In this document: positions 6,501 through 31,326 of the stretch, piece after piece
How the letters are laid out: the number at the start of each line of letters is the position of its first letter
How positions within the stretch are numbered: position 1 is the stretch's first letter
From: a virus
Length of the DNA: 31,874 bases
Virus record (IMG/VR): IMGVR_UViG_3300045988_165319
Coordinates: 1-31,874 of that record
Strand: one strand, 5' to 3'
The notes under the pieces: model-generated
What the model was told of the DNA's origin: nothing
Database searches by the model: none
The model's input: the letters and a program-made list of their open reading frames with translations, nothing else
Position numbers and translations under genes: made by a program

Positions 6501-6592
6501 CCACTAAAAACGCCACTAGACGCATTCTGAGGCACTTTCTAGCCGTTTTTATAGCCAAGATGGGTATTTACCCTACTTTGGGGCTAAAACGT

Positions 6593-6653
6593 CACACAGA
6601 GGCTCTGGTGCGGTCTGAGGGGGTGTTTTGTGGGAGGGTAGGTCTTAGCATTC
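6593..6653 (+). repeat. Conserved G-rich element, copy A (CACAGAGGCTCTGGTGCGGTCTGAGGGGGTGTTTTGTGGGAGGGTAGG)
   Basis: Near-identical copies at 15313-15364 and 31182-31229. The pseudo-ORFs translating as HTEALVRSEGVFCGR are by-products of this repeat. Confidence 0.85.
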
Positions 6654-6692
6654 ACGAGATTGCTTTTTGCCCGCCCCGAATTAGCTCGGGAT

Positions 6693-6721
6693 TTGACAAA
6701 GCGGTATCGTCTTGCTACAAT
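6693..6721 (+). promoter_or_regulatory. Early promoter P2 (TTGACA-N17-TACAAT) with the conserved leader
   Basis: Consensus -35, 17-nt spacer, TACAAT, then ATCATCAATGAAAGGAGGAATGATGAG. Confidence 0.7.
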
Positions 6722-6746
6722 CGCCGTATCATCAATGAAAGGAGGA

Positions 6747-7205
6747 ATGATGAGTAAAAATAAGGGCGTCGTCTATCAGTTGATAGCTTTCAATCGGCAG
6801 ACGAAGGAGGAAGTCGTGGTGGGCTACGGTAGTCTCAACGAGATTTGCGAGCTGATCTACACCGACTACAACTACGATGGGGAGATTACGCTGGCTGACG
6901 AGGATGCTTACGATGCCGTCGTCTCGGTTATTGAGGCGATCCGCAATTCATTGCCGACCGTGGGGCGTAAGGAGGGCGGTTATGACGTGCCGAGCGATAT
7001 CGTGGAAGACATACGGCAAAGCGTCGATGTTGCCGTTACGGACTACGTCGCTCACGCCCATAGGTTGCTGTCGGCTCGAAGTCGTCACCCTGAGCGCACT
7101 AAAGTAGAGCGGTTTAACCAGTACTTTGACAGGATGATAGCCGGCTTTAAGCTTTGTGAGGATAACCCGAGCCTTGTCCATGAGGAAGAAAAGTCGGGTG
7201 ACTAA
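6747..7205 (+). CDS. Hypothetical protein (~152 aa)
   Basis: Start at the ATGATG at 6747 or 6750, downstream of AAAGGAGG. The track start at 6660 is upstream of the promoter. Confidence 0.5.
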   Translation: MMSKNKGVVYQLIAFNRQTKEEVVVGYGSLNEICELIYTDYNYDGEITLADEDAYDAVVSVIEAIRNSLPTVGRKEGGYDVPSDIVEDIRQSVDVAVTDYVAHAHRLLSARSRHPERTKVERFNQYFDRMIAGFKLCEDNPSLVHEEEKSGD

Positions 7206-7668
7206 AGTGCCCATAGCCGGGTATATCGTCAAGTTGGACGATGGGGCTGAGGTGTCTCTGACCGCTCCGCTTGATTGCCGATCTAATCGGTCAAGCCTAA
7301 ATAGCGTTTTACGTCGCTATCTCGCCAAGAACTATCCGGGGCTCCGCTCTTCGGCGACTGACTACCAGGTGGTTATCGATGTGGAGGCGACGGCTAAGAA
7401 GGTCGAGGAATTGGTAACCTATCGGCTACGTCGGCAGGGCTTTACGGTCAAGCGGGAGGCTAGTGTCGGCGGTGTGGTCTTGGACTATTACAAGCCCGCC
7501 GACAAGAATAAACCGACTGGACACCACCGTTTCGATCCGCTATATGCCACCTATCACACTGTTTGGGGTGTAGATGGAGTGGAGTGCGGTAGGGTCTGCT
7601 ACGACATGGACGGCGGTAAGCATGGCGAGGTATTCGTCGACCCTGTTTATTTAGAGGATATTTACTAA
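7156..7668 (+). CDS. Hypothetical protein; start uncertain (alternative starts at 7180 ATG or 7198 GTG)
   Basis: Long ORF that overlaps the previous gene by 50 nt if started at 7156. AGGAAG lies 9 nt before the GTG at 7198. Confidence 0.4.
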   Translation: MRITRALSMRKKSRVTKVPIAGYIVKLDDGAEVSLTAPLDCRSNRSSLNSVLRRYLAKNYPGLRSSATDYQVVIDVEATAKKVEELVTYRLRRQGFTVKREASVGGVVLDYYKPADKNKPTGHHRFDPLYATYHTVWGVDGVECGRVCYDMDGGKHGEVFVDPVYLEDIY

Positions 7669-7681
7669 GAAAGGAGAAGAC

Positions 7682-7876
7682 ATGAAAGATAAAGTGAAAG
7701 CCAAGTGTAAAGAGATAATGGCTAAATTAAAGAGCAATAAAGTCAATGGGGCGGTCAAGGTTGGGCTGGCTATCTATTTAGCGTTTTGTGTGTTAGTGCT
7801 GGTGCTCGGTTGCGTGATTTTAGCGCAATCTATCGGCTTTATGAAGGCTATCTTGATGCCGTGGCGTCGGCGGTAG
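7682..7876 (+). CDS. Small membrane protein (64 aa, one TM helix)
   Basis: SD AAAGGAGAAG 4 nt upstream. Hydrophobic segment VGLAIYLAFCVLVLVLGCVILA. Confidence 0.5.
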   Translation: MKDKVKAKCKEIMAKLKSNKVNGAVKVGLAIYLAFCVLVLVLGCVILAQSIGFMKAILMPWRRR

Positions 7877-7897
7877 TTTGAGGGAGAGGAGGTTATT

Positions 7898-8518
7898 ATG
7901 CAGACACCTGAAGGAAGAGCTAAAGCGCTCAAAACGATGAGGGAGCGTTACGGCGATGATTACTTTAAGCGAGTAGGTCGGCTCGGCGGTTCGAGCTATC
8001 ACTCCAAGCCCCGTGGCTTCGCTTCCGACCCTGAGCAGGCTCGGATAGCGGGGCGCAAGGGCGGAGCTAAGTCACGTCGTCAACGTGATAGTGCATATAT
8101 CCTGCCAGGCTCGTTAGACAGCGAGACAGTGCGACGGATCATGTGGCAGGCGATTAGTCAAAATCGGTCGCTTTATAAGTCGATTAAGTCCATTAACGCT
8201 GACATGTTTAGCGCCTCAAAGAATGATATCGTTTGGGTGACTGAAGATGTGGTGCGTGAATACGTGGGGTGGACGGTTAGCCCAAATAGCATTATTAAAC
8301 AGGGCGTGCTTCGACATGGGGTGGATAAGCCTGTCGTCTACTGGTATCGGGTGATATGTGCCCACGACATCAAGAATAGTAATATCAATATCATCCTAAT
8401 ACTGAACATTGGCGACACTACTTATTCGCTTTATTGGGACGTTACCACCGAGCGCCCCGCCCGTCTGGGGCGAGCTAAAGACATTAAGTGCGCTGAGACT
8501 GAGTTATCCACACCTTGA
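7898..8518 (+). CDS. Protein with an N-terminal KGG-repeat (stress-protein-like) domain (206 aa)
   Basis: The N-terminus ERYGDDYFKRVGRLGG...GFASDPEQARIAGRKGGAKS is paralogous to the 77-aa protein at 22911-23144. SD GGAGAGGAGG. The last codons ELSTP lie inside the repeated promoter module. Confidence 0.55.
   Translation: MQTPEGRAKALKTMRERYGDDYFKRVGRLGGSSYHSKPRGFASDPEQARIAGRKGGAKSRRQRDSAYILPGSLDSETVRRIMWQAISQNRSLYKSIKSINADMFSASKNDIVWVTEDVVREYVGWTVSPNSIIKQGVLRHGVDKPVVYWYRVICAHDIKNSNINIILILNIGDTTYSLYWDVTTERPARLGRAKDIKCAETELSTP
8504..8512 (+). promoter_or_regulatory. DnaA-box-like TTATCCACA upstream of P3
   Basis: Exact 9-mer read directly. Confidence 0.45.
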
Positions 8519-8543
8519 TGTAAATGTGGCTATGCTATAGGGC

Positions 8544-8572
8544 TTGCGTCTTGGGGTGGGGTGAGATATAGT
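8544..8572 (+). promoter_or_regulatory. Early promoter P3 (TTGCGT-N17-TATAGT) with the conserved leader
   Basis: The segment 8500-8570 is about 90% identical to 10882-10952. Confidence 0.65.
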
Positions 8573-8598
8573 GTGTGTATCATCAAATGAAAGGAGGA

Positions 8599-8775
8599 AT
8601 GATGAGAAGCAGTAAACTCAACTTTCACCGAGTTGGGGGACGGGTGGTTATCGAGCGAGACGATGATTACTTTCTGAAGTCCGACATTGTCGGCTTAAAG
8701 ATTAGCCTGGGGCTGATAATTGCGCTGTTTGCGCCATTAGCTATCCATGCTGTCGGGGCGTTGTTCGTGGAGTAA
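8599..8775 (+). CDS. Small membrane protein (~58 aa)
   Basis: ATGATG start after AAAGGAGG. Hydrophobic C-terminal helix GLIIALFAPLAIHAVGALFV. Confidence 0.5.
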   Translation: MMRSSKLNFHRVGGRVVIERDDDYFLKSDIVGLKISLGLIIALFAPLAIHAVGALFVE

Positions 8776-9065
8776 TGTGTATGTGTAGCGGTTTACTTAA
8801 AGAGGAGGGCTTACGAGTAAAAGCAACAAGAAGGTTAGCCAAGCTACCCAAGCCAAGTTGGCTGTCACAGGTAGCCGGCTATCTCGGTTCAAGATTTACT
8901 TTGAAGCAACATAGAGGGAAGTCTCGTCGGACAAAGCGGGAGATTGAGCGTCGGCACAAAGTCTTTGACGATACTCGCCCTCATGACGATATGGACGATT
9001 TAATCAGGGCGTTGGAGTTTGAGAACTTTATGCGTGATGATTATGTCAAAGAAGGTAGTCGGTGA
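8775..9065 (+). CDS. Hypothetical basic protein (96 aa)
   Basis: ORF with start/stop overlap (TAATG) to its neighbours, typical of translational coupling. Confidence 0.45.
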   Translation: MCMCSGLLKEEGLRVKATRRLAKLPKPSWLSQVAGYLGSRFTLKQHRGKSRRTKREIERRHKVFDDTRPHDDMDDLIRALEFENFMRDDYVKEGSR

Positions 9066-9358
9066 TTGGTAAGCTCGAGCCTGTCGTTCATCTTGAAGAT
9101 GGGAAGGAGGTAGTGGCTTGGCGCTGGCGGAAGAAGTACTTCAGCAAGCGGTCGCCCGGTTCACCTTACCGACATGGCGGGAGCTGGTTTACTCTGTCGA
9201 GCGACTCGGGTGGCTCGTGGATGGCTTGGCAGGATGTGCCTAGTCGGAGCGAAGACGGACAAATAATGTACTCGGAGGGGTCGCAACCCGTTACCACCGC
9301 CGAATACGAGAAGTTAGATAAAATGCTCGCCGAACGTATGGGCGGAGCAGGGAGGTAA
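9062..9358 (+). CDS. Hypothetical protein (98 aa)
   Basis: Overlapping start (GTGA), tightly packed. Confidence 0.45.
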   Translation: MIGKLEPVVHLEDGKEVVAWRWRKKYFSKRSPGSPYRHGGSWFTLSSDSGGSWMAWQDVPSRSEDGQIMYSEGSQPVTTAEYEKLDKMLAERMGGAGR

Positions 9359-9363
9359 ATAGT

Positions 9364-9708
9364 ATGAAAATGACAATGACAATCGATGGCAATAAGGGGC
9401 TATCGAGCCTGGCTGACATGATTAGTGATACGGCGAGGCTTGGGATAGCTGTCGTCACTATAAACGCCATGGCAGAGGCTAGTTGCGATAACTATTCTGA
9501 CCAGAGCGCCACATTTCACGAGGGGATGCTGGCGGTAGCCACCGAGATGGTTATTTATGGCGGGTTAGTCTATGACGCCCTTATTCACGCTGAGATGAAG
9601 GCTGTCGCCGATAACTTTCTGAAGGAGCTGAACGACCTGCGTAAAACCCAAGCTAAATATAGTGAGATGCATAAAAAGGCTCTCCGAGAAGCAAAGGAGG
9701 AGCAGTAG
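9364..9708 (+). CDS. Hypothetical protein (114 aa)
   Basis: SD GGAGCAGGGAGG upstream. Confidence 0.5.
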   Translation: MKMTMTIDGNKGLSSLADMISDTARLGIAVVTINAMAEASCDNYSDQSATFHEGMLAVATEMVIYGGLVYDALIHAEMKAVADNFLKELNDLRKTQAKYSEMHKKALREAKEEQ

Positions 9709-9710
9709 TC

Positions 9711-10091
9711 ATGGAAGCTGATTTGAAGGTAGCGATGTTTGACGAGTCGGTGACTAGTAAGATTAGAGAGCTGGCGTCGAGTGCGCTTAAAACATGGCTA
9801 AAGAAAGTTGGCGATGACAAGTCGGACAATCAATGGTATATCGAGAAGTGCCTGCGCCAAGTCATGGCTCACTCGGACTGGGTTGGGATAAATACAGCCG
9901 ACACTTTTCACGATTTTAAGAAGTGTAATATCGATTATGTTGATATTGCCGACAATGTAGCCGGGGTCGAGTCGGCGAATACGCCCTACTATCTCGTTAT
10001 CTTCAATATCGACGACAGTCGCTACGTTGCTCGCTTCAGCTTAGCGGGTGGGGTGATGGTCGACGAGCGGATGGACTTAGGAGACGACTAG
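9711..10091 (+). CDS. Hypothetical protein (126 aa)
   Basis: SD AAGGAGGAG upstream. Confidence 0.5.
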   Translation: MEADLKVAMFDESVTSKIRELASSALKTWLKKVGDDKSDNQWYIEKCLRQVMAHSDWVGINTADTFHDFKKCNIDYVDIADNVAGVESANTPYYLVIFNIDDSRYVARFSLAGGVMVDERMDLGDD

Positions 10092-10474
10092 TGGCGTCGG
10101 TACGCTCCTCCAATATCAAGTTTGCCTCGGATAGGCTGGCTAACGATGAGATGAGTATCATTGTACGGCGTCGGATAGCTCAATGCATGGACGCTGTCGA
10201 TAACTGGTGGTCAATCAACTATAAACGCCTAAAACGTAACGAGTTTTACGAGACTACCGAGACATTGCAGGAGCTGGTCAAGTCACATCGCCCTATCGGT
10301 CTGGTTGGCGAGATGATTTACAAGGCTAGGTCTGATGTTGAGTATATGGGCGTAATCAGCACAGCCTGGCTAGTTGAGGGGTATGTGTCCCATTCGGGAC
10401 ATTCCCTCTCCAGGTTGCAATGGATTGTGGTTGATGTTGGTAAGTATCGCTACTACTGCTCGCACTACTTCTAG
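10091..10474 (+). CDS. Hypothetical protein (127 aa)
   Basis: GTG/ATG overlap start. The gene fills the gap. Confidence 0.45.
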   Translation: MASVRSSNIKFASDRLANDEMSIIVRRRIAQCMDAVDNWWSINYKRLKRNEFYETTETLQELVKSHRPIGLVGEMIYKARSDVEYMGVISTAWLVEGYVSHSGHSLSRLQWIVVDVGKYRYYCSHYF

Positions 10475-10489
10475 TAGTATCATGGTGAT

Positions 10490-10900
10490 ATGAATGATGA
10501 CGATTTTGCTAAGCCGACAGACGGCATCCTGGGTGACGGGGTGCTGTCTTTTCGGTTAGCCCAGCTTTATGTTGGTGAGCCTAGGTATCACTGGGTCTAT
10601 CGCAACTATCTGGATCGCTTTACCCTATATCCTGTCGCTAGTGACAAATATCGAGGGCTACTGATTGTGCAGGTGGGCTTTGGGCGGGTGAGGCTACGGA
10701 CTCGAACGGGGGCGTGGGCTACCGAGCGATTGCGCCATATATCGATAGCTTGCGCTAAGCTACATAGTCACTTCAATTACGCTGTAGCTATCGTTACTAC
10801 TGCCGAAGACGCCAAGGCTATCTATCAATCATATGTTGACGGGACGAGCTATATCGATAACTTGACGGCTAATGCCTGCGGTGAGTTATCCACAGCTTGA
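10490..10900 (+). CDS. Hypothetical protein (136 aa)
   Basis: The ORF ends with ELSTA inside the repeated promoter module, paralleling the ELSTP ending of 7898-8518. Confidence 0.5.
   Translation: MNDDDFAKPTDGILGDGVLSFRLAQLYVGEPRYHWVYRNYLDRFTLYPVASDKYRGLLIVQVGFGRVRLRTRTGAWATERLRHISIACAKLHSHFNYAVAIVTTAEDAKAIYQSYVDGTSYIDNLTANACGELSTA
10886..10894 (+). promoter_or_regulatory. DnaA-box-like TTATCCACA upstream of P4
   Basis: Exact 9-mer read directly. Confidence 0.45.
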
Positions 10901-10925
10901 TGTAAATGTGGCTATGCTATAGGGC

Positions 10926-10954
10926 TTGCGTCTTAAGGTGGGGTGAGGTATGAT
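10926..10954 (+). promoter_or_regulatory. Early promoter P4 (TTGCGT-N17-TATGAT) with the conserved leader
   Basis: Same module as P3. Leader is TATCGTCAATGAAAGGAGGAATGATGAG. Confidence 0.65.
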
Positions 10955-10979
10955 ACTTGTATCGTCAATGAAAGGAGGA

Positions 10980-11330
10980 ATGATGAGTGAAAATAAGGAC
11001 AGTGGCGACATGGAGCAACTGCTCATAGCGATGAGTGCTACGTGCACGTTGCTGGAATGTGCAATAGCTGATCATAGCAACAATCATAGCCTGGTAGGGA
11101 TGTGCGCCATAGCTAACGAGCTTCAATGTCACGCCCGTGCTGTCTATAAGGCACTTACTATGGACAAAGTGGGCAAGTCGAACAGTGGGAGATTTAGCCT
11201 CGAGGAGAGTATTGACGAGCTGGAGGAGTTGATAACCGAGGCTGAGGCGTCAATGCTTATGAATAAGCTCGTGGATGGATGTAGGGCGATGTCCGGCGCC
11301 GGTGAGTCGAAGGACGATGATGGCGAGTAA
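10980..11330 (+). CDS. Hypothetical acidic protein (~116 aa)
   Basis: ATGATG start after AAAGGAGG. The C-terminus is Asp/Glu-rich. Confidence 0.5.
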   Translation: MMSENKDSGDMEQLLIAMSATCTLLECAIADHSNNHSLVGMCAIANELQCHARAVYKALTMDKVGKSNSGRFSLEESIDELEELITEAEASMLMNKLVDGCRAMSGAGESKDDDGE

Positions 11331-11886
11331 AAGCCAATCGCCACACGACACGATAGTTGGGCTTTGGCGGTGGCTGAGAAGCGGTTATATCAAGGGTAAA
11401 CTGGAGGGCAAGACAGTCCTCGATTCATGCTGTGGCGGGAGGATGTTTTACTTCGACAAGCATCATCCGCTCGTCATATATGGCGATGTACGTCAAGAGT
11501 CCGTCTCTATGACTGATCGGGGCAAGTTTAGGTCTCTGGACATTACTCCGGATGTAATACTGGACTTTACCTGTATGCCGTTTTTAGACGATAGCTTCAA
11601 CTTTGTGGTTTTTGACCCGCCTCATCTCGTGAATTGCGGTGAGAAAAGTTGGCTGGCGAAGAAGTACGGCAAGCTCGACAAGGACAGTTGGCAAGATACA
11701 TTGAGTAAAGGCTTGAGCGAATGTATGCGTGTGGTTAAGCCCGGTTGCGTCGTGGCTATGAAGTGGAGCGAGGGCGACATATCGACGGCTAAACTTCTAA
11801 GGGTATTGCCCTATAGCCCAGCCTTCGGCGATAAGCAAGGCAAGAAGCGATGGTTATTTTTTATTAAAGGGATGAAAGGAGAGTAG
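11317..11886 (+). CDS. Putative SAM-dependent DNA methyltransferase (small, motif I then DPPH motif IV)
   Basis: VLDSCCGGRMFYFD is an FxGxG-like motif I. FNFVVFDPPHL is a (D/N)PP(Y/F/W/H) motif IV. Likely start is MMASKS at 11317 (the track start at 11275 overlaps the previous gene). Confidence 0.5.
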   Translation: MMASKSQSPHDTIVGLWRWLRSGYIKGKLEGKTVLDSCCGGRMFYFDKHHPLVIYGDVRQESVSMTDRGKFRSLDITPDVILDFTCMPFLDDSFNFVVFDPPHLVNCGEKSWLAKKYGKLDKDSWQDTLSKGLSECMRVVKPGCVVAMKWSEGDISTAKLLRVLPYSPAFGDKQGKKRWLFFIKGMKGE

Positions 11887-11887
11887 A

Positions 11888-12490
11888 GTGATCATTTATA
11901 AACTAAAGGAAGATTGGTCGTCCTTTAAGGCTGGCGAGAAGTTCACTGCAAGTAGTTATGGTAATTTGTATCAGCTCGTCAACGATGACGGTGAGCTAGC
12001 TGACGGTAAGCTAGTGCTTGCTAAAATACAGCCAGACCTATTAGATAAGGTTGGTGATGGCGATTATTGGAAGCCAAAAGCACACGAGCACTACTATTTT
12101 ATAGATGATGCAGGGGACGTTGACGTGGACACATTTTGTCTTACTACGAATTACGACAACAACAGATTTGCGCTCGGTAATTGCTTTAAGACCAAGGAAG
12201 ATGCACAAGCTATGGTTGCTTGGCTCAAAGCTCGACAGAGGTTGATTGAAAGTGGAGCTATATTCATGAATGCGTCTGATGCAGACAAAGGTAGCGCCTA
12301 TTATAACGTTACTTTTGACAAAGATAGTTGCGAATTGATGGCGCGTCAGGTTTATAGCCTTGATAACTATGTCGCTGACAGAGCGTTATATTTTGACGAC
12401 TGTGAGTCCGCTAAGATAAGCATCAAAGAACATAAAGACGACTGGCTGATATATCTCGGCGTGAAGGAGAAGAGTGGTGGTAATTCATGA
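11888..12490 (+). CDS. Hypothetical protein (200 aa)
   Basis: SD AAAGGAGAG upstream. No domain recognised. Confidence 0.5.
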   Translation: MIIYKLKEDWSSFKAGEKFTASSYGNLYQLVNDDGELADGKLVLAKIQPDLLDKVGDGDYWKPKAHEHYYFIDDAGDVDVDTFCLTTNYDNNRFALGNCFKTKEDAQAMVAWLKARQRLIESGAIFMNASDADKGSAYYNVTFDKDSCELMARQVYSLDNYVADRALYFDDCESAKISIKEHKDDWLIYLGVKEKSGGNS

Positions 12491-12848
12491 CCTTGGTGCC
12501 GAAGCTACGGATATTGAACACTTGCGGACGGCGTGGCTCATCCGGACAGACATAGACGTTGTTAAGTATTCTGACGTCTCAGTTATTCGCTACATCGATG
12601 ATAGTAGCGACCATCGATATGGCACGTTTGTCTACCAGTTAGGAGGCGGGGCTTGGCGTATCGCTCGGATTGAGCGTGGATCGAGCAACAAAAAACTTGT
12701 TGTCACTCAAAAGAGCGATAAGGTCTATGCCCTACACGAAGTAATTCCCGCCTTAGCTAAAGGTGGCTATCACGGGGCTAAACAGATAGCTAGTTACATG
12801 ATGAAGCATTTCGGTTTAGACGAGGCGACAAGAGATGACCAAGACTAA
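12474..12848 (+). CDS. Hypothetical protein (124 aa)
   Basis: Overlapping, coupled ORF. Confidence 0.45.
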   Translation: MVVIHDLGAEATDIEHLRTAWLIRTDIDVVKYSDVSVIRYIDDSSDHRYGTFVYQLGGGAWRIARIERGSSNKKLVVTQKSDKVYALHEVIPALAKGGYHGAKQIASYMMKHFGLDEATRDDQD

Positions 12849-13038
12849 AAGACACTTTAACTTTGTTGATTTTATGGGCAGTGCCTGCGTCGTGGTGCTG
12901 GCGTTAGCATTCATCTATATGATATGCGCCTACGCCTTCTTCATAACCGACGACGCGTTAAGAGAGAGGCAAAAGAAGATAGACGGCTGTTGCGCTCAGT
13001 GTAAAGATTTAAGCAAGAAGAAAGGAGAGAGAAAATGA
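12835..13038 (+). CDS. Small membrane protein (67 aa)
   Basis: TM helix ACVVVLALAFIYMICAYAFFI. Cys-rich basic tail. Confidence 0.4.
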   Translation: MTKTKRHFNFVDFMGSACVVVLALAFIYMICAYAFFITDDALRERQKKIDGCCAQCKDLSKKKGERK

Positions 13039-13307
13039 TAAAAGGTGGCGACGGAGCACGATTTGGCTTAGCGTGTGTGATAGGGCTGTTGCTCGAGATT
13101 GTTCGAATAGTAGCAATAGCGGGGCTGGTGATCGTGGCGATATGTTTTGCCCGTGACACTATTCATAGTGCCACCCTGCCCGACGAAGACCAGGCTCAGT
13201 GTGAGAGCTTGGGTGGTCGATGGTCGGTCAATCACCAGTGTTATAACGCTGGTGAGCCGACGACTATTAAGAAGCTAAAAGAGAGCTTGAGGAATACGGC
13301 ACGATGA
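13035..13307 (+). CDS. Small membrane protein (90 aa)
   Basis: SD AAAGGAGAGAGAAAATG. TM helix LACVIGLLLEIVRIVAIAGLVIVAICF. Confidence 0.45.
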   Translation: MIKGGDGARFGLACVIGLLLEIVRIVAIAGLVIVAICFARDTIHSATLPDEDQAQCESLGGRWSVNHQCYNAGEPTTIKKLKESLRNTAR

Positions 13308-13912
13308 GTGAGAATAAATACAAGACCATTTATACGGACATAATGCCCGCCTATCGTGAGTCTGAGGATTACTGTCGTATGACGCTGGATATGCTTAAGC
13401 ACGCCATCGCCGGCATGGATACGGACGCAATGAGGGATGCTTACGATAAGCTAACCAAGTGCTTCGACGACCTAACTAAAACCGTGCAAGAGATATCGAT
13501 GCGGTTTAGAGAGGTGTCGGAACTTTTAGACGACTGTCTTGACGATAGTCGCCAGCCAGAAATAGACGAGGAACAGTACTCCGTGTATTGTGTCGGTGGT
13601 GGGCTATTATTAGACCCGCTAGAGGTTAGACACTGGGTATCCGAAGCGTTGCCTCACGCCTCTGTGCGCAGGGCGTGGTATCACGTCCCTTATAACCTAA
13701 CGCTCAAACGAGGGGTACTGGTATGCGAGCTCAATGGCGAGCATGGTTCGACATATCGGATGGCGTTACTTAGGTGTTATCCGATGCTCGACTTTGACGA
13801 TGGCGAGTATTCACTCAATAGTGTAATAAGACGCCTTTCGCCACACGACAGGGGGTACGGAGCTAATATGATTAGTAGACGTTTAAGAAAGGAGAAGAAG
13901 AATGAAGGATAA
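13304..13912 (+). CDS. Hypothetical protein (202 aa); N-terminus paralogous to the next gene
   Basis: EDYCRMTLDMLKHAIAG...LTKCFDDLTKTVQEI resembles DDCHLTIKVLKQHVAK...VGERFDELNDTVEAI in 13902-14489. Confidence 0.5.
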   Translation: MSENKYKTIYTDIMPAYRESEDYCRMTLDMLKHAIAGMDTDAMRDAYDKLTKCFDDLTKTVQEISMRFREVSELLDDCLDDSRQPEIDEEQYSVYCVGGGLLLDPLEVRHWVSEALPHASVRRAWYHVPYNLTLKRGVLVCELNGEHGSTYRMALLRCYPMLDFDDGEYSLNSVIRRLSPHDRGYGANMISRRLRKEKKNEG

Positions 13913-14489
13913 TCGGACTAAGAAGCTGGATAGACTTGTTGGGCAATATCGCATTAGCAGAGATGATTGTCACTTGACTATTAAAGTATTAAAGCAACAT
14001 GTCGCTAAATACAATGACGCTGACCTGGCTAATGGGGTTGAGCTTGTCGGCGAGCGGTTCGACGAGCTTAACGATACAGTAGAAGCCATTGTGGCGACTG
14101 CCCAAGAAGCGTGTAAGCCGACAGGAAGCGACGCCAATAGCCCAAAATGGACTCCCCTGCAGGATAATCTACGCAAGTATGAGCAGGACGAGATTATGGA
14201 TACCCTCTTTGAAGATATCGACGTTGACGAGATTATCTACTATGTAGAGTATAGCTTCCGCCCCGCTGATTGTCTGATAGTCTGCCGAGACAAAGCCGGT
14301 GACTGGTATTGTCGAAGCATTAAATTAGAGGATGGCTACGGTTTAGATTGCATGTACGACGATTGTGGCTTAACTAAGTTTAGTGCGGTAGGGATATATG
14401 GCTTGATGAAGTTGCATGACTGGGTTAGCAATTCGATGATGGCTACTCATTTGAAAACGGAAGGGTATCTGGCTGAGTATCTGAAATGA
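13902..14489 (+). CDS. Hypothetical protein (195 aa); paralog of 13304-13912 in its N-terminal part
   Basis: SD AAAGGAGAAGAAGAATG. Shared N-terminal pattern with the preceding gene. Confidence 0.5.
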   Translation: MKDNRTKKLDRLVGQYRISRDDCHLTIKVLKQHVAKYNDADLANGVELVGERFDELNDTVEAIVATAQEACKPTGSDANSPKWTPLQDNLRKYEQDEIMDTLFEDIDVDEIIYYVEYSFRPADCLIVCRDKAGDWYCRSIKLEDGYGLDCMYDDCGLTKFSAVGIYGLMKLHDWVSNSMMATHLKTEGYLAEYLK

Positions 14490-14908
14490 CCGAGGCTGAT
14501 TTACAAGTGCAAGTAGCTTATTACCTCAGGTTGCAATACCCTGACGTCATTTTTCACTCCGACTATGGCTCGGGGGTGAGACTAACCAGGTATCAAGCTA
14601 ATGTGCAACGTAAACAGAATGGTGGACGTCGAGCCTACCCTGATATGTTTATTGCCAAGATGATGAACGGCAAGGGTGGGCTATTTATTGAATTGAAAAA
14701 GGAGGGCACTAAATTAAAGAAGAAGGACGGCACTTGGCTCACCTCTCATCTGGCCGAGCAGGCGGAGATGTTGGAGAAGCTTAAAATGGAAGGGTACGAG
14801 GCTTATTTTGGGGTAGGTTTTGATAATACTAAGGCAATAATTGATAGCTACCTAGGAGGGACTAATGAACAAGAAGATACCGATGATGACCCGACAAGCG
14901 TTTTCTAA
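14486..14908 (+). CDS. VRR-NUC domain nuclease (PD-(D/E)xK superfamily)
   Basis: YPDMFIA ... GGLFIELKKEG gives the D...E-x-K catalytic pattern in the VRR-NUC arrangement. A helical tail follows. Confidence 0.55.
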   Translation: MTEADLQVQVAYYLRLQYPDVIFHSDYGSGVRLTRYQANVQRKQNGGRRAYPDMFIAKMMNGKGGLFIELKKEGTKLKKKDGTWLTSHLAEQAEMLEKLKMEGYEAYFGVGFDNTKAIIDSYLGGTNEQEDTDDDPTSVF

Positions 14909-15251
14909 ACTGGTAAATATCATCATTGAACAGTCAAAACGGGACAGAGAGTTTACTCAGGCTCTCAATAAATACACCGCCCCGAAGGGCAAGACGGGTG
15001 ATTGTGAGTTCATGAGTGATTGGCTAAGTGAGGACATTCTGTCAATCATCGATGATATCTTCGGCTATCCCGCCAGCAACTATGTCGGCTGGTGGATATG
15101 GGACTGTCCTAGTGCGGGCGAAGCGTCCTACGATGATTGCACGGTGACCGCCGACGGCAAGAAGTGGTGTATTAAGACGACTAATGATTTATACGACTTT
15201 TTAGCTGATGAAGTTATGCCCGGCAATATCGGCGAGTCTGACGTGATATAG
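14865..15251 (+). CDS. Hypothetical protein (128 aa), last gene of the early block
   Basis: SD AGGAGGG 5 nt upstream. Followed by a terminator hairpin. Confidence 0.5.
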   Translation: MNKKIPMMTRQAFSKLVNIIIEQSKRDREFTQALNKYTAPKGKTGDCEFMSDWLSEDILSIIDDIFGYPASNYVGWWIWDCPSAGEASYDDCTVTADGKKWCIKTTNDLYDFLADEVMPGNIGESDVI

Positions 15252-15280
15252 TCCGAGATATTTTATCGCTTTATTGTTAA

Positions 15281-15310
15281 AGATGAGTATATACTCATCT
15301 TTTTATTTAT
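15281..15310. terminator. Bidirectional intrinsic terminator between the convergent early and late blocks
   Basis: 20-nt perfect palindrome AGATGAGTATATACTCATCT followed by TTTTTATTTAT on the plus strand and TTTAACAATAAAG on the minus strand. Confidence 0.7.
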
Positions 15311-15312
15311 CA

Positions 15313-15364
15313 CGTCACACAGAGGCTCTGGTGCGGTCTGAGGGGGTGTTTTGTGGGAGGGGTG
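15313..15364 (+). repeat. Conserved G-rich element, copy B, between the terminator and the HNH gene stop
   Basis: CACGTCACACAGAGGCTCTGGTGCGGTCTGAGGGGGTGTTTTGTGGGAGGGG. See copies A and C. Confidence 0.85.
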
Positions 15365-15365
15365 G

Positions 15366-15698
15366 TTACCAGGCGTTACTTAGCGGTATAGGGCAATCCG
15401 AGTTTAACTCCATGTGGTCGCTGTCCATTCGCTTGCCTTTGCGCCGATTACACCTAAAGCACAGCGTCTGTAGGTTCGATATTTCATACGGTGCACCACC
15501 TCTAGCTAGCGGTACGATGTGATCTATTTCGACGGCTTGGGCGGTACAGCGAGGGGCATTCTTGTCAAGCGGTTTACCGCATATGGCGCAATGAATATCG
15601 TCGCCCGCTAGGTCAAGCACCCTCTTGCGAGCCTTCTCCCACGCATCAGGGTTCCACATTGTACCATCGGGCAGGACGTGCCATCTATGTTTAGGCAT
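15366..15698 (-). CDS. HNH endonuclease
   Basis: CAICGKPL...EIDHIVPLARGG...NLQTLCFRCNRRKG is a classic HNH Cys-box/His-Asn-His pattern. It is the last gene of the late block. Confidence 0.8.
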   Translation of the reverse strand: MPKHRWHVLPDGTMWNPDAWEKARKRVLDLAGDDIHCAICGKPLDKNAPRCTAQAVEIDHIVPLARGGAPYEISNLQTLCFRCNRRKGKRMDSDHMELNSDCPIPLSNAW

Positions 15699-21100: not shown

Positions 21101-21166
21101 TAAGGATATCTCCCTGTTTGTTAACCCAGCTTAGCCGATACTGTACGTGTTGCTATTTCTGTTTCA

Positions 21167-21175: not shown

Positions 21176-21179
21176 TCAA

Positions 21180-22841: not shown

Positions 22842-22902
22842 TATTGTTTTACTCCTGTTTATTGGCTAACGGCACAACCATAGTTGGCTCTGCTTAGATG
22901 AA

Positions 22903-22911
22903 TTATAACAT
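22903..22911 (-). promoter_or_regulatory. Late promoter, extended -10 TGTTATAAT, upstream of the major tail gene
   Basis: Minus strand reads GTAAGTAATGTTATAATTCATC. Confidence 0.55.
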
Positions 22912-23144
22912 TACTTACGCCTGCGTCTGAGTGTCTTGCCCCGGTTGGCTCGTCCACCCTTTGCCCCTGCCACTTTGGCTCGTTGCTTACCTCTTAAACC
23001 GTCCTTACCTCGCTTACGAGAGGCGAACCCGCCATCCTTGCTTTCTTCTCCGCCCTGTTGACCTATCTTCTGATAGAAGCCTCGACCGTATCTTCTAACT
23101 ATCGTGTCTCTTGTTCTGCGGGCACTTTTCTTTGTAGTACTCAT
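22911..23144 (-). CDS. Small, highly basic KGG-repeat protein (77 aa)
   Basis: YGRGFYQKIGQQGG...GGFASRKRGKDGLRGKQRAKVAGAKGG is a KGG-type repeat. About 30% of residues are Arg/Lys. Coupled downstream of the large terminase. Confidence 0.55.
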   Translation of the reverse strand: MSTTKKSARRTRDTIVRRYGRGFYQKIGQQGGEESKDGGFASRKRGKDGLRGKQRAKVAGAKGGRANRGKTLRRRRK

Positions 23145-23153: not shown

Positions 23154-24638
23154 TTACCAGAGCATCACTTCTTGTTGAGTCTCACCGTCATTACCTGCTA
23201 TTACCCGCCTAAAACGGTTAGCACCATAGTGGGCTAGGGCGACGGCTTCTACGGGGTCGGTCTGTACTTCGGGGTTGATTGAGGCGAAGCCAAAAGCCCC
23301 ATCTCTACCGATATCCCTGGTTTTAGCCACCCTAATAGCCATATTGAGGGCGGGCTGATTGTAATGGGTGATTGTCTTGTTCTTGACGGCTTGATAAAAG
23401 CCCCCAAAACCTGCCCCGACCTCTCTGACGTTGGGGGTGAGGATCTTCTTTTTCATCCGTCTATCACTTCGGATTAGGTCTTCGATTAGGAGCTGTGTAC
23501 CTGATGCTCCGTCGATGATTATCTTCTGTGCTTTATCACGGCGTGGTAGTAGCCACCTGGTTATCCAGCTAATTCCTGCCTGCAAGGGTCTACGGTCGAT
23601 TAGCTCGACGTGGATCTTATTATTGGGCATAACCACCCCGACGGCTAGGCTGACGAAGGCTCTGTCGGGTGAAAACTTAACAGCATAGCAAAGGCTTGGC
23701 TTATCAGGCAATACTACCTCTTTAACCGCTAATTTATTCCATTCCTCAGTCTTAAAAGCTCGATCCGAGTCTACCCCTCTCACCCAGCCTAGACGCATCT
23801 TATTAAAACTATCCAAGCTCATGGTGCTTGACTCGGCTTCGACCGCACCTAACTGCAGAAAATAGCCCAAGCTGGGGTTAGTGTCATACCAGGCTTGTCT
23901 GACCTTCGGGTCGGTGACGGTCTCTACACTCCACTCCCGCCAGGCTACGTGAGTAGCTTTACCGCTGATAGTATTCTCCCTAACTCGCATAAATGTAGTA
24001 CCTCTAGCCCCTGCCGGTGGGGGTGTGCCTGCATAAATCATCTGATAGTTATGGTTTCGCCCCGCCGAGATTGTCGGTCGGAGGGCTTCCTCCTGGGCGT
24101 CTGTGAGCTCCTGCGCTTCATCTATGATTAGGGTGTCATTAGTAAAGCCAAGTCCAGAGTCTCTCGTCCTTGTCCTAAAGACACACCGTCCACCATTGCG
24201 CAATTCGATATAGTCGAGGCTTTTCGGCTCGTTATTGAACTCATCAGTGAGCATATTGCGCAATTCCTGCTTTGCTCCATAGAAAAACTGAAAGACAAGA
24301 CGCTTAATCTCGTTTACGGTGACGACGGTGTGAGCGGTGTAGACTAGTGTCTCTCCCTCACACACCATACCCGTGATAATCCTGCTCCTAAGTAAAAACG
24401 TCTTGCCGTTCTGGCGTGGTAACAATAGCCCACACTCATGGTTTGACCAGTCGCCGTTGTCGTCTTGCATCATCCACTGGCGCAAGGTGTCCTCCTGCCA
24501 TGGCAGGAGCTTATCGCCATACGACTCCATCAGTTCAATGCCAATATCAGCCAGGTATGGGTCGCCTTGCTGAAAGATATCAATGCGTGGCTTTTGGCTA
24601 CCATAGCGAGGTAGGGTGCTTGCCGTCTGCTGTGCCAT
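23154..24638 (-). CDS. terL: Terminase large subunit
   Basis: Walker A LLLPRQNGKT, Walker B TLIIDEAQ, C-terminal nuclease-like region. 494 aa. Confidence 0.9.
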   Translation of the reverse strand: MAQQTASTLPRYGSQKPRIDIFQQGDPYLADIGIELMESYGDKLLPWQEDTLRQWMMQDDNGDWSNHECGLLLPRQNGKTFLLRSRIITGMVCEGETLVYTAHTVVTVNEIKRLVFQFFYGAKQELRNMLTDEFNNEPKSLDYIELRNGGRCVFRTRTRDSGLGFTNDTLIIDEAQELTDAQEEALRPTISAGRNHNYQMIYAGTPPPAGARGTTFMRVRENTISGKATHVAWREWSVETVTDPKVRQAWYDTNPSLGYFLQLGAVEAESSTMSLDSFNKMRLGWVRGVDSDRAFKTEEWNKLAVKEVVLPDKPSLCYAVKFSPDRAFVSLAVGVVMPNNKIHVELIDRRPLQAGISWITRWLLPRRDKAQKIIIDGASGTQLLIEDLIRSDRRMKKKILTPNVREVGAGFGGFYQAVKNKTITHYNQPALNMAIRVAKTRDIGRDGAFGFASINPEVQTDPVEAVALAHYGANRFRRVIAGNDGETQQEVMLW

Positions 24639-24653: not shown

Positions 24654-25625
24654 TTAGTTGTAAATGTCGCCAAGACGGACGAGCCTCATGGTTGTCCAGC
24701 TCGGTAGTATGGTCATATTTATGCCACGGTTTTCGATACTTGCTCTCACCTCCTGCCCTGGAGACGTAATCGCTATCGGCACAGTAGAGCCATACACGTT
24801 ATAGCCGGTTGACCGGATTGATTTGGTGGTTAAGTAAATAATATCCCCTGGCTGGCTTGGGGTGGGAGGGGTGACGCTCAGGATGACCAGCACATCGTGG
24901 GACTCTTTCGTCCCGAGCAGTAGGGTGACAAGATATATCCCAGGCTTACTGATCCGTACGGTCGCATTATTAGTTATCGTGTAATAATCGTATGCGTTGG
25001 ACGATGATGCGGTCACTTTATTGAGTTCTGGTATAAGGATCTGTTGCCCATCGGCTCGAATATCCCATGGCTGGCTTGGTCTAATTGCTATATACGGCGA
25101 TGCCGGGTATAGCTCACTCCTGTGCGGTCTGACGTCGAGGATTAGGTCGTTGCTCAGGTTGGTCGCTCCCGCCGGCACGGTCACTTGAGCTAGCTTGATA
25201 AACGGGTTGCCCGCCCCGATAGCCTGTAGTACGGCGTTATCGTCGGGGGCTTGGGGCGATACGTTTGGTGTCCCCTTAACGGCGACGAGCTTCAGCATGT
25301 TATTGACGTTATCTTGGCTATCCGTGGTGGGGGCGACCGATGAGTCGATGTAAATAACTATGAGGTCTTTACGGGGTAGGGTCGTATCAGCGGTAGTGAT
25401 AGTTATATCTACAGGTGATGTTAGCGCCACCCGACGTGATAGTTCACTATCCACCCTAATTAGGGCATTGCCTTTAGCGACGGTAACCTTCATCCCTCCC
25501 GTGGTAGACACCCTTAGGGCGTCATAGCTGGCGACAGCATTACCGCCCAGTGCTTCGTTTTCAAAGGCGGTGTATGCACTGGCTGAGTGTAGCCCTCCTG
25601 CCATGTTATAGACTTTATTCGCCAT
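24654..25625 (-). CDS. Hypothetical beta-rich structural protein (323 aa) immediately upstream of terL
   Basis: Ser/Thr/Val-rich. It is not a small terminase by size or composition. Confidence 0.4.
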   Translation of the reverse strand: MANKVYNMAGGLHSASAYTAFENEALGGNAVASYDALRVSTTGGMKVTVAKGNALIRVDSELSRRVALTSPVDITITTADTTLPRKDLIVIYIDSSVAPTTDSQDNVNNMLKLVAVKGTPNVSPQAPDDNAVLQAIGAGNPFIKLAQVTVPAGATNLSNDLILDVRPHRSELYPASPYIAIRPSQPWDIRADGQQILIPELNKVTASSSNAYDYYTITNNATVRISKPGIYLVTLLLGTKESHDVLVILSVTPPTPSQPGDIIYLTTKSIRSTGYNVYGSTVPIAITSPGQEVRASIENRGINMTILPSWTTMRLVRLGDIYN

Positions 25626-27804: not shown

Positions 27805-27868
27805 CTTGTTTAACTACTTATTACCAGACATTACCGCCTCTGTAGACGTCGTTACTATTTCTGTTTCA

Positions 27869-27877
27869 ATTATAACA
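27869..27877 (-). promoter_or_regulatory. Late promoter, extended -10 TGTTATAAT, upstream of the portal gene
   Basis: Exact 30-mer shared with the promoter at 21153-21182. Confidence 0.55.
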
Positions 27878-27885
27878 TCAATTAT

Positions 27886-29763: not shown

Positions 29764-29800
29764 TATTCTCTCCCTATCTATTATGCGTCAATGACGCTGT

Positions 29801-30268: not shown

Positions 30269-30316
30269 TTATTACTCCTTTGACCGTTAGATTACTCAGC
30301 CGTCGCTGATGTATAA

Positions 30317-30325
30317 ATCATAACA
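30317..30325 (-). promoter_or_regulatory. Late promoter variant, extended -10 TGTTATGAT, upstream of the scaffold gene
   Basis: Minus strand reads CAATATGTTATGATTTATAC. Confidence 0.45.
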
Positions 30326-30341
30326 TATTGAGATGTGGCTG

Positions 30342-30719
30342 TCAGTCAACTATGGTGATGCGCTGATAGACGTCGAGGTATATCTGGTAGCGATGATAGC
30401 CCGATATAGCGTCGTCCAGGTGAATGATGCTATTTACCTCTGCCCTGGTTACGTTCTCAAACTCTAATAACTTGTTGACGGTGCGAGCAATCTTCTGCGC
30501 TTCCTGCATGGCTAGCGTTCGACTGTTCTTGTCGTATGCCTCTACCAGTATCTCCGCTCTGTCCAGCACTAAATCGCCATATCCACCGCCCGTTCTGTCA
30601 AAGGTGATGAACGAATTGGGGCGTTTAGTGGGAATGTCGGGAGTAACCGACCAGCCACCCGCCACTTCTTTAAGCCAGATATACACGTTCTCTTCTACAG
30701 TTGCCTTGCCGGGTTTCAT
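30342..30719 (-). CDS. Neck / tail-completion protein (DUF3168, SPP1 gp17-like)
   Basis: The pattern VYIWLKEVAG...NSFITFDRTGG...AEILVEAYDKNSRTLAMQEAQKIARTVN matches DUF3168-type proteins. Confidence 0.45.
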   Translation of the reverse strand: MKPGKATVEENVYIWLKEVAGGWSVTPDIPTKRPNSFITFDRTGGGYGDLVLDRAEILVEAYDKNSRTLAMQEAQKIARTVNKLLEFENVTRAEVNSIIHLDDAISGYHRYQIYLDVYQRITIVD

Positions 30720-31066
30720 CCGTTTATCTCCTCCGCTGTAAAGTATCTATTCCATCTTGTAGGGGTGTTCTCTGCCATAAATGAGTCGCCATCTTGATAG
30801 ACATGGTAAATATGCCCATCCCAAGTGACCTCACTATCACTAACGTCGCTATCGTCGGCTTTGGGAAGGTGGATGCGGACTAGCCTTTTACCTGCCGTCA
30901 CCGCCTGTTGCTCACGGGCTGACTGCGGTTCGACGAGCGGTTCGATTAGACAATCGTCAATTTTAATGGTCTTAAGCGAATGGGTTGGCTCACCGATACT
31001 GTTCGGCTTACCCTCAACCCGCTTGGTAAATGTCAGTGTCGTGCCTTTCAGTGCCATATTGTCCAT
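30716..31066 (-). CDS. Head-tail adaptor (Phage_H_T_join family)
   Basis: CLIEPLVEPQSAREQQAVTAGKRLVRIHLPK ... VTWDGHIYHV matches the head-tail joining consensus. Confidence 0.55.
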   Translation of the reverse strand: MDNMALKGTTLTFTKRVEGKPNSIGEPTHSLKTIKIDDCLIEPLVEPQSAREQQAVTAGKRLVRIHLPKADDSDVSDSEVTWDGHIYHVYQDGDSFMAENTPTRWNRYFTAEEING

Positions 31067-31072
31067 ATTATA
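31067..31072 (-). promoter_or_regulatory. TATAAT hexamer abutting the first ATG of the late block (possible leaderless-type start)
   Basis: Minus strand reads TTGGCTATAAT ATGGACAATATGGCA. There is no SD, and transcription would initiate at about the second ATG. Confidence 0.35.
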
Positions 31073-31143
31073 GCCAATAATCAGCCGTTTTGGCTACATG
31101 CCGTGTGGTTTATTCTCTGCCCGTTTTGTCGCTTTATTGTTAG

Positions 31144-31171
31144 AGATGGGCATGTACCCATCTTTTTGTTT
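31144..31171. terminator. Terminator hairpin AGATGGG-CATGTA-CCCATCT plus T-run (variant of the 15281 hairpin)
   Basis: Compared with copy B, the stem carries compensatory A>G and T>C changes. Followed by TTTTTGTTT. Confidence 0.6.
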
Positions 31172-31181
31172 AGGACGCCGT

Positions 31182-31229
31182 ACAGAGGCTCTGGTGCGGT
31201 CTGAGGGGGTATTTTGTGGGAGGGTAGGT
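31182..31229 (+). repeat. Conserved G-rich element, copy C
   Basis: TACAGAGGCTCTGGTGCGGTCTGAGGGGGTATTTTGTGGGAGGGTAGG. Confidence 0.85.
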
Positions 31230-31326
31230 ATCTCCCTTGACAACGCCCTCAATAAATGTCTCCAGATATTTTAGCTTTATACGGCGGACACAGCCCCGTT
31301 TTACAGTAGTGGGGACGCCCCCCTGT

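Follow-up and report, generated by a model that had tools for sequence, protein, structure and literature searches.

A triplicated ~106-nt cassette with an invariant 21-bp box at gene-block boundaries of a siphovirus genome

Results

The viral DNA studied here (IMG/VR record IMGVR_UViG_3300045988_165319) comprises 31,874 nucleotides (nt). This whole stretch is referred to as the window, and all coordinates relate to it. The window contains a dispersed repeat which was originally predicted to be a triplicated G-rich element next to terminator hairpins at operon boundaries. By use of a repeat finder and sequence reads, three direct copies of a unit of ~106 nt were identified, all of them on the plus strand, and the non-random association of the triplicated element with hairpin and T-run structures at gene-block boundaries was confirmed. 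The coordinates first given for the copies are valid for the right-hand ~50 nt, whereas the repeat as a whole runs ~55 nt further to the left and includes the hairpin. Each unit is composed, in this order, of an AT-rich hairpin (followed by a T-run in copies B and C), a spacer measuring exactly 17 nt in all three units, the 21-mer CAGAGGCTCTGGTGCGGTCTG (hereafter the box) and a G/T-rich tail. The copies and their parts are:

6538-6643, plus strand: unit A, 76% identity to the reference copy; right after the stop codon of the replication initiator gene (5409-6500) and upstream of the promoter at 6693-6721
15261-15366, plus strand: unit B, the reference copy; at the convergent junction between the end of the early block (15251) and the stop codon of the HNH endonuclease gene (15366)
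31124-31229, plus strand: unit C, 86% identity to the reference copy; between the Hc1 gene and a long (~500-nt) non-coding region
6552-6586, plus strand: hairpin of unit A, imperfect and without T-run; loop and stem top vary among relatives
15279-15302, plus strand: hairpin of unit B, AAAGATGAGTAT/ATACTCATCTTT, then TTATTTAT; passes the terminator scan
31142-31165, plus strand: hairpin and T-run of unit C, TTGTTTAGG, the T-run being TTGTTTAG; passes the terminator scan
6597-6617, plus strand: box of copy A
15320-15340, plus strand: box of copy B
31183-31203, plus strand: box of copy C
6618-6643, plus strand: G/T-rich tail of copy A, AGGGGGTGTTTTGTGGGAGGGTAGGT; G4Hunter score 1.5-1.75
6693-6721, plus strand: sigma70-like, TG-extended promoter TTGACA-17-TACAAT downstream of unit A

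In copies A and B, the hairpin is located at the 3′ end of a plus-strand transcription unit (5409-6500 and 14865-15251, respectively). As had been noticed before, the minus-strand stop codon of the HNH gene (15366) coincides with the edge of copy B, and a strong sigma70-like promoter lies downstream of copy A.

A phage database gave no nucleotide match to the window. Further assemblies showing ~88-92% nucleotide identity and the same architecture were retrieved via their proteins (IMG/CALIXD, ERZ28634387, ERZ27319671, ERZ28635620 and others), and in all examined relatives of this kind the copies occupy the same three positions. Thus, the element is conserved beyond the window genome, and it is restricted to these relatives. 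Exact 19-23-mer scans of viral, metagenome and genome collections detected the core of the element in this phage lineage alone, apart from chance matches without similarity in the flanks. Moreover, nhmmer did not find the core in 80 loci of the wider family (55-61% TerL identity) or in L096, a phage with a 71% identical TerL protein that is devoid of the element and differs in its gene arrangement. Dispersed repeats analogous to the cassette were not detected in nine other genomes of the family. Gene conversion between the copies is evident in ERZ28634387 (locus L097), whose copy B does not differ from its copy C in the left half.

To quantify constraint, segregating sites were counted within orthologous groups, using 12 copies that stem from five or more assemblies with an overall divergence of ~10%. 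The box was invariant in 12/12 aligned copies. The 21-mer had 0/63 segregating sites, where the background is 0.16 per site (P~2e-5); it is under constraint, and this constraint is confined to it. The hairpin region together with the left flank exhibited 29/186 segregating sites, the outer flanks 41/231 and the G-rich tail 8/66, which is the background rate (pooled value outside the 21-mer, 78/483). Since copy A has kept the box though its hairpin decayed, the box seems to be selected in its own right. It harbors a perfect 5-1-5 dyad of 11 base pairs (bp), CAGAG-G-CTCTG, and a third GTCTG one helical turn (10 bp) further on. An additional plus-strand GTGCGGTCTGA, corresponding to 11 nt of the box, is present at 25122-25132 inside a late gene and may be a chance match.

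As far as can be judged from the sequence, copies B and C are plus-strand intrinsic terminators and copy A is a degenerate one. The latter agrees with the earlier description of a decayed hairpin, as the stem of copy A is weak and imperfect and no T-run follows. It is plausible that the hairpin of copy B also serves the late operon as a weak bidirectional terminator. With -6 to -12 kcal/mol, the AT-rich stems are all weak. The compensatory changes on which selection for the hairpin had been based amount to one covarying stem pair, GAG/CTC in copy B versus GGG/CCC in copy C. The intermediate GAG/CCC was found in four of the 12 copies, all of them from relatives. It creates an A.C mismatch on the plus strand, which is thereby destabilized (about -6 instead of -11 kcal/mol), whereas pairing is preserved as G.U on the minus strand. 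Given these mismatched intermediates, the covarying pair argues only weakly for selection on the hairpin. A small structured RNA, which had been named as a candidate role, is unlikely, since no fold is predicted beyond the hairpin (plus-strand z-scores of -1.2 to +1.0) and Rfam gave no match at any copy (whole window, E<=1).

A profile of the left half of the unit revealed homologous imperfect palindromes of ~100 nt in distant family members, with the consensus GAGATGrGTA...CTTT...AAAAGCCCTCACAGAGC. This hairpin module separates the lysin gene from a gene for a small membrane protein in L026, L027, L028 and L033. It lies in the non-coding region upstream of initiator genes in L017, L028 and L051, and L036 possesses it as well. 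The module occurs in either orientation; L028 contains two, and none is present at the lysin junction of L017. Because positions and orientations differ among the distant members, the hairpin module can be regarded as a movable intergenic cassette of this phage family. Its distribution indicates that the module is older and that the 21-mer and the tail are a lineage-specific addition.

The element is non-coding. All three copies are open in one common frame, and gene callers predict an open reading frame (ORF) of 86 amino acids at copy A (6497-6757). In the IMG relative this ORF is frameshifted by a 2-nt deletion, and substitutions at codon positions 1/2/3 amount to 8/5/10, i.e. there is no codon-position bias. 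A small protein encoded across the core was therefore rejected. The element is not a fragment of a known insertion sequence or miniature inverted-repeat transposable element (MITE) either, since the unit borders lack terminal inverted repeats (TIR) and target site duplications and since searches of the phage database, Rfam and Pfam gave no match. No transposase was detected among the window ORFs (Pfam, PHROGs). Location in coding sequence of relatives and derivation from a known insertion sequence or MITE, which the original prediction had named as grounds for abandoning the element, do not apply.

Other identities of the core were also considered. For a sigma70, sigma54, ECF or T7-like promoter, convincing hexamers are missing on both strands and no phage RNA polymerase gene was found. 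Inspection alone revealed no convincing likeness to dif/Xer sites, parS or CRISPR repeats. A boundary of module exchange was rejected, as the segment in common with an unrelated 40-kb phage (see below) stops at 6214, short of the element. A counterpart of the core in inverted orientation ahead of copy A, which would yield one long palindrome, is marginal only (p=0.06), and the tail of the core as 5′ arm of a second, tandem, family-wide palindrome was rejected (p=0.41). The origin of the core from a decayed early promoter cassette is ambiguous. The best local match to the region upstream of P104 comprises 26/33 positions (p=0.004); it draws on flanking sequence that only copy A has, and the register changes with the program used.

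The G-tract arrangement of the tail, which had led to the proposal of a G-quadruplex (G4), exists in the window, yet it does not amount to a canonical G4 motif, and relatives do not keep it. Each copy contains three G3+ tracts only, and no copy harbors a motif with loops of N1-7 or, more permissively, N1-12. G4Hunter assigned scores of 1.5-2.0 to the tail, which ranks among the highest G-rich windows of the genome. The tracts are altered in copies B and C of the IMG relative. Among relatives, GGGAGGG changes to GTTGGGG and GAGGGGG to GGGAGGG, and copy B of one relative reads GTGTTGGGG. In view of the lacking canonical motif and the background substitution rate of the tail, a G4 was rejected as a selected feature.

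The 11-mer CTGGTGCGGTC was detected at 660, 6605, 15328, 31191 and 31720, five times and throughout on the plus strand, as claimed at the outset. At <=1 mismatch there is no extra site, and 0/100 shuffles reached five occurrences. Two of these sites belong to direct repeats that are perfect within the window:

527-715, plus strand: 189-nt direct repeat, copy 1, with a GC-rich terminator (540-559) and the 11-mer (660-670); overlaps the 3′ end of the TerS-like gene
31587-31775, plus strand: 189-nt direct repeat, copy 2, with the 11-mer at 31720-31730

Within the window, a 15-nt stretch is common to the cassette and the 189-nt repeats (p=0.006). In relatives the repeat reads TTAGGTGCGGTC, so that only the 9-mer GGTGCGGTC is common to box and repeat. 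Hence, the proposed link between cassette and repeats holds as a short motif in common but is weaker than stated.

In both gene blocks, G and T are enriched on the plus strand, and a number of short words are strictly polar. Fifteen hexamers occur at least 10 times on the plus strand and never on the minus strand, among them GTTGGC (22:0, from 1249 to 30984), GGTTGG (21:0), GTTGCC (17:0), GTCTGA (15:0) and GCTACG (12:0). Random flipping of 500-nt blocks yielded 0.46 such hexamers on average and three at the maximum. This polarity is present in plus- and minus-strand gene blocks and is kept in the ~90%-identical relatives. It is absent from L096, L104 and the distant family. The right half of the box is assembled from GTGCG (38:3), GGTCT (58:10) and TCTGA (39:5), three of the most polar 5-mers of the genome. 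With the repeats masked, longer sub-words of the box are unexceptional (GTGCGGT 6:1, rank ~1900; 7-8-mers unremarkable). The polarity might stem from a mutational regime that acts on one strand, from evasion of restriction that depends on site orientation or from a polar process. As an inverted cassette would break the polarity rule, the rule alone could explain the common orientation of the copies.

Close to copy C, the ends of assemblies coincide. Three independent assemblies with different local sequences (IMG/CALIXD, ERZ28634387, ERZ28578008) all end at 31276/31277. Nine assemblies cover the site in total; a fourth one stops 12 nt before this point (31264), and the remaining five read through.

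31257-31290, no strand assigned: probable physical genome end, cut at 31276/31277 within a 19-nt AT-rich centre

The sequence reads ...TTTAGCT to the left and TTATACGG to the right of the cut. An imperfect inverted repeat (TGTCTCC / GGCGGACA) encloses the AT-rich 19-mer, and from strain to strain the 11 nt left of the cut are hypervariable. Since the sequence right of the cut is unique in the genome, the break of the contigs was not caused by a repeat. It is thus probable that 31276/31277 is a physical terminus of the cos type, which is consistent with the presence of HNH and TerL genes. The contig ends, as indirect evidence, suggest a terminus near copy C and not near copy B and the HNH gene, whose proximity had led the original prediction to list packaging among the candidate roles. 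Between unit C and the cut to its right lie 47 nt, and the 21-mer of this unit is 73-93 nt away from the cut. To the right of the putative end, the non-coding region contains a C-run (31318-31323) of 6 to 8 nt, depending on the strain, and beside it (31327-31346) a perfect 16-bp palindrome, TGACGTCATGACGTCA, which resembles an operator.

Regarding replication, the initiator gene itself contains an origin-like region, which lies in the kilobase with the lowest GC content of the genome:

5757-5910: origin-like region inside the initiator gene (5409-6500)

Two perfect 18-bp repeats, AACAATCGCAGAATGTGC, begin at 5770 and 5792 (22 bp apart) and are followed by an AT-rich run of 44 nt (5822-5865) and a C/G palindrome, CCCCCCTAAACCCCCCCATGGGGGGTTGTGTGGGG, at 5866-5900. 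Lambda has a similar layout. The unrelated 40-kb phage L104 possesses the module 5094-6214 of the window at 90% identity and nothing further. As the iterons of the initiator gene are unrelated to the box, the cassette is unlikely to be the binding site of the initiator, and a replication iteron or origin at copy A was rejected as the main explanation.

The gene content of the window is that of a siphovirus. The gene blocks and the genes referred to here are:

31066 down to 15366, minus strand: late operon, 5′-most gene Hc1, 3′-most gene HNH endonuclease
start at 31066/31057, minus strand: first late gene, Hc1
23154-24638, minus strand: TerL, within the late operon
15366-15698, minus strand: HNH endonuclease, last late gene
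4178-15251, plus strand: early block, including an O/DnaD-like replication initiator and a DNA methylase
5409-6500, plus strand: replication initiator (O/DnaD-like)
14865-15251, plus strand: last early gene
3619-698, minus strand: short block encoding a ParB-methylase, an endolysin and a TerS-like protein
698-1597, minus strand: TerS-like gene, a weak assignment (E=2.7e-7 over 67 residues)

The late operon encodes head closure, tail terminator, scaffold, major capsid, portal, adaptor, TerL, major tail, tape measure, Dit, Tal and HNH proteins. Compared to the usual siphovirus order, the late genes are scrambled, with TerL in the middle of the operon and HNH at its far end, while the order in L096 is HNH, a gene for 141 amino acids, HNH and TerL. 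In the nearly identical assembly L099, a 67-nt segment of the TerS-like gene (1285-1351) is duplicated, and gene callers split the ORF differently; this segment is a variable internal repeat.

Both ends of the window consist of a (TAG)n microsatellite (1-56 and 31817-31874). Because other assemblies read through this junction, with differing numbers of TAG units, the genome is circularly closed and has a size of ~31.8 kb. The copy number is ~9, 19 and 21 units depending on the assembly, and in more distant strains the microsatellite is interrupted or nearly absent. It is located directly upstream of a DnaA box and a promoter. Perfect DnaA boxes, TTATCCACA, were identified at 61-69, 8505-8513 and 10887-10895, and also at ~8350 in L096. 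They lie ~45 nt upstream of the -35 hexamer in three near-identical early promoter cassettes whose -35/-10 spacers are unusually G-rich.

Promoter cassettes with the 5′ untranslated region (5′UTR) are reused at 104, 4129, 8538 and 10920, with only the 5′UTR part at 6693, and late extended -10 cassettes are reused at 21149 and 27851. Since such modules recur, the copying of control elements is normal for this phage. The late-promoter cassettes on the minus strand (21149-21182, 27851-27884, 22884-22917) contain the extended -10 sequence TGTTATAAT. Upstream of the first late gene and of the gene starting at 28787, a TATAAT is located 0-7 nt from the ATG, which suggests leaderless mRNAs or mRNAs with a very short leader. 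In addition, Rfam revealed a full-length match to the DUF3800-I RNA on the minus strand (4910-5028; 76 bits, gathering threshold 44) between two plus-strand early genes; no DUF3800 protein was detected near this match.

One relative of 29,942 nt was binned in a metagenome-assembled genome of Candidatus Saccharibacteria, and short identical contigs come from human oral metagenomes. The host is possibly a member of the Saccharibacteria within the candidate phyla radiation (CPR). A literature search on Saccharibacteria phages retrieved nothing relevant.

Discussion

The unit described here might be a portable boundary cassette of ~106 nt, made up of an old AT-rich hairpin module and a lineage-specific 21-bp box. 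According to this proposal, the box would be the recognition site of a putative sequence-specific DNA-binding protein encoded by the phage or the host. A protein bound just past the terminator could act as a roadblock or operator, similar to a stoperator, and thereby reinforce or insulate the boundaries of transcription units. Three boundaries would be concerned: where the replication operon ends, where the early and late blocks meet, and where the late operon borders on the genome end. The common orientation of the copies might derive from their duplication history and from the genome-wide plus-strand rule for the words of the box (GTCTGA, GTGCG, GGTCT). Such a role of the box as a protein recognition site on DNA that strengthens or insulates these boundaries is a tentative and still doubtful assumption. 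We infer three of its steps from the sequence, namely that the box works as duplex DNA, that a protein binds to it and that binding affects transcription.

Several properties of the cassette speak in favor of this assumption. The distance between hairpin and box is fixed at 17 nt in the three copies, and the 5-1-5 dyad with a third half-site 10 bp further on would, as read from the sequence, constitute a typical operator architecture. There is no RNA structure past the hairpin, no Rfam family and no conserved reading frame. Furthermore, the hairpin homologues of relatives reside at boundaries of gene blocks such as lysin/membrane-protein junctions and regions upstream of initiator genes. On the other hand, a number of observations weigh against it. 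No repressor, sigma factor, antiterminator, integrase or member of a transcription-factor family was detected among the ORFs by Pfam and PHROGs; many early proteins are without annotation, which leaves room for a novel binder. Copy C has no obvious plus-strand unit to terminate, as the plus strand upstream of it is antisense to the late operon. The same orientation of all copies, whatever the direction of the flanking genes, fits a strand-specific DNA process at least equally well. Copy C adjoins the probable genome end and the 9-mer recurs by the TerS-like gene, which hints at packaging. Finally, with ~10% divergence among the genomes, the constraint is strong for the 21-mer and has no power to separate a DNA function from an RNA function.

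The hints at packaging lead to an explanation in which the box or its 9-mer core is recognized by the small terminase subunit or by the HNH/TerL machinery. Copy C and the two 189-nt repeats would then form a recognition region around the genome end, while copies A and B, which have no cleavage sequence, would act as pause sites or in an accessory role. The coinciding assembly ends at 31276, the fourth end 12 nt before and the unique sequence downstream are in line with this, as is the motif of 9-11 nt in both 189-nt repeats, which flank the region by the TerS-like gene. Copy B adjoins the HNH gene, and the phage family exhibits the arrangement of HNH beside TerL that is typical of cos packaging (PMC11331095). 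Nevertheless, three equally conserved dispersed copies would be harmful if they were cos sites, and no contig ends at the equivalent position beside A or B. The TerS site of HK97 is a single stretch of 15 bp located 15-29 bp from the cut (PMC11331095), whereas the box is 73-93 bp away. Relatives retain no more than 9 nt of the motif in their 189-nt repeat, and the assignment of TerS is weak. A pure packaging model leaves copies A and B unexplained, and an involvement of the box in packaging is regarded as unlikely.

It is just as improbable that the cassette is a selfish or neutral repeat, i.e. a small palindromic MITE-like element or a recombination by-product of control regions, in which the box has no function of its own. 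The hairpin homologues appear in varied intergenic contexts and in both orientations, and their presence differs among related phages, as illustrated by the two copies of L028 and by L017 with none at the lysin junction and one upstream of the initiator gene. The gene conversion visible in copy B of ERZ28634387 (L097), whose left half matches copy C, points in the same direction. However, the absence of substitutions in the orthologous boxes (0/63, compared to 16% elsewhere in the cassette) contrasts with a neutral element, and so do the missing TIR, target duplications and transposase and the fixed positions of the copies in every relative examined.

The uniform orientation raises the question of whether the cassette is a strand-specific DNA signal that is connected with replication in a single direction or with nucleases entering at the genome end. 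It is conceivable that the cassette is a priming site for the complementary strand (an ssi/sso-like hairpin plus recognition box on a displaced G/T-rich strand) or a Chi-like signal against nucleases. Every copy resides on the plus strand regardless of gene direction, this strand is G/T-rich in both blocks, the 15 hexamers at >=10:0 far exceed the 0.46 expected, and the right half of the box consists of the most polar 5-mers. By analogy with lambda and Chi, the orientation would be the active one for an enzyme of the RecBCD/AddAB type entering at 31276. The 189-nt repeat contains GCTGGTGC, which matches the Chi site of Escherichia coli in 7/8 positions; the Chi of the host may differ. By contrast, the invariant box of 21 nt is much longer than any Chi, and its sub-words are not outstandingly skewed after masking of the repeats. 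The intermediate hairpin variants are mismatched on the plus strand, the origin-like region with its own iterons lies elsewhere, and ordinary lagging-strand synthesis needs no specific priming sites. Altogether, a signal of this kind is not probable. The narrower version, in which the 21-mer is an oriented DNA signal for a one-strand machine (priming, nuclease attenuation, packaging pause or termination) under the same regime as the polar hexamers, with the first copy less than 100 bp from the genome end, is considered quite improbable. If true, it would represent a new kind of polar cis-element in a phage with a probable Saccharibacteria (CPR) host.

An RNA element on the minus strand is likewise quite improbable. 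It would comprise the complement of box and tail followed by the hairpin, after HNH at copy B and ahead of the late operon at copy C, and would provide Rho loading (rut-like), a processing site or a 3′-end stabilizer in late transcripts. Indeed, the complement of the core contains ~50% C and 12% G and is unstructured, and the hairpin is fully paired on the minus strand in all copies B and C (G.U in the intermediates). The order of methylase, lysin, TerS-like gene, genome end and head/tail genes resembles that of the late operon of lambda, and minus-strand transcripts may for this reason cross copy C. In copy B, the hairpin is directly followed by UCUUUAACAAU, an 11-nt match to the boxA of the E. 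coli rrn operons. This string is restricted to copy B of the window; the other copies read UCUCUAACAA, and the boxA-like sequence, which is read on the minus strand, was rejected as a signal. In addition, copy A lies within a block of plus-strand genes only, rut sites do not require 21 invariant nucleotides, and a TATAAT promoter is located downstream of copy C, beside the first late gene. The reading with the least support, a G4 on the plus strand (in DNA or in read-through RNA) as a structural signal, is highly improbable, because the tail with its three shifting G-tracts drifts at the background rate and the constrained part is the 21-mer, which is no G4 sequence.

Multi-copy intergenic control sequences are a recurring and poorly understood feature of phage genomes, and gene regulation, replication and packaging have hardly been studied in phages of uncultivated Saccharibacteria. 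A 21-bp box under purifying selection provides a concrete handle for finding the factor that binds to it. Together with the genome end by copy C, the origin in the initiator gene and the polarity of short words, it makes the biology of this small genome directly testable. Since the element is confined to one lineage and resembles known terminator and operator repeats, the surprise is moderate.

Among known systems, intrinsic and bidirectional terminators share with the cassette the hairpin between an A-tract and a T-run, and the positions of copy B between converging blocks and of copy A at the end of the replication operon correspond to those of terminators. Unlike typical representatives, the stems are weak and AT-rich, copy A is devoid of a T-run and copy C lacks an evident plus-strand unit. 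Moreover, terminators do not include an invariant 21-bp box at a set distance behind the hairpin. MITE, REP and Correia-like repeats and the single-strand origins of rolling-circle replicons are comparable in that the hairpin module is an imperfect palindrome of ~100 nt whose intergenic position and orientation vary within the phage family, with several copies per genome. The cassette differs from them by the absence of TIR with target duplications and of a cognate transposase or Rep protein, and its conserved 21-mer is not part of the palindrome.

Chi and restriction sites comprise 5-8 nt, and T7 contains Type III restriction sites in a single orientation. The strict one-strand orientation and the richness in G are in common with such polar oligomers, and the genome contains many one-strand words, whereas the constrained sequence comprises 21 nt and is attached to a hairpin. 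Recognition sites in cos regions, for instance cosB and cosQ of lambda, are comparable as well. Like the cos sites of the HK97 type, copy C is situated less than 100 bp from the probable end in a genome with HNH and TerL genes and a short motif near a TerS-like gene; different are the larger distance of the box from the end and the two more, equally conserved copies many kilobases off.

The stoperators of cluster A mycobacteriophages measure 13-14 bp, number 20-30 in each genome, point in the direction of transcription and serve as binding sites of the immunity repressor; binding of the phage protein has been proposed to stop transcription (PMC9283540, PMC6550527). As in these phages, the sites described here are multi-copy, asymmetric and conserved, and they are dispersed in short intergenic regions of a siphovirus genome. 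Their number is smaller (three, plus two partial ones), they are longer (21 bp), they lie on one strand regardless of gene direction, and neither a repressor nor an integrase was found. The orientation in particular deviates from that of stoperators, as all copies are on the plus strand even though copy C and half of copy B face minus-strand genes. By likeness alone, terminator cassettes and dispersed operators of the stoperator type would be the closest analogues of the cassette.

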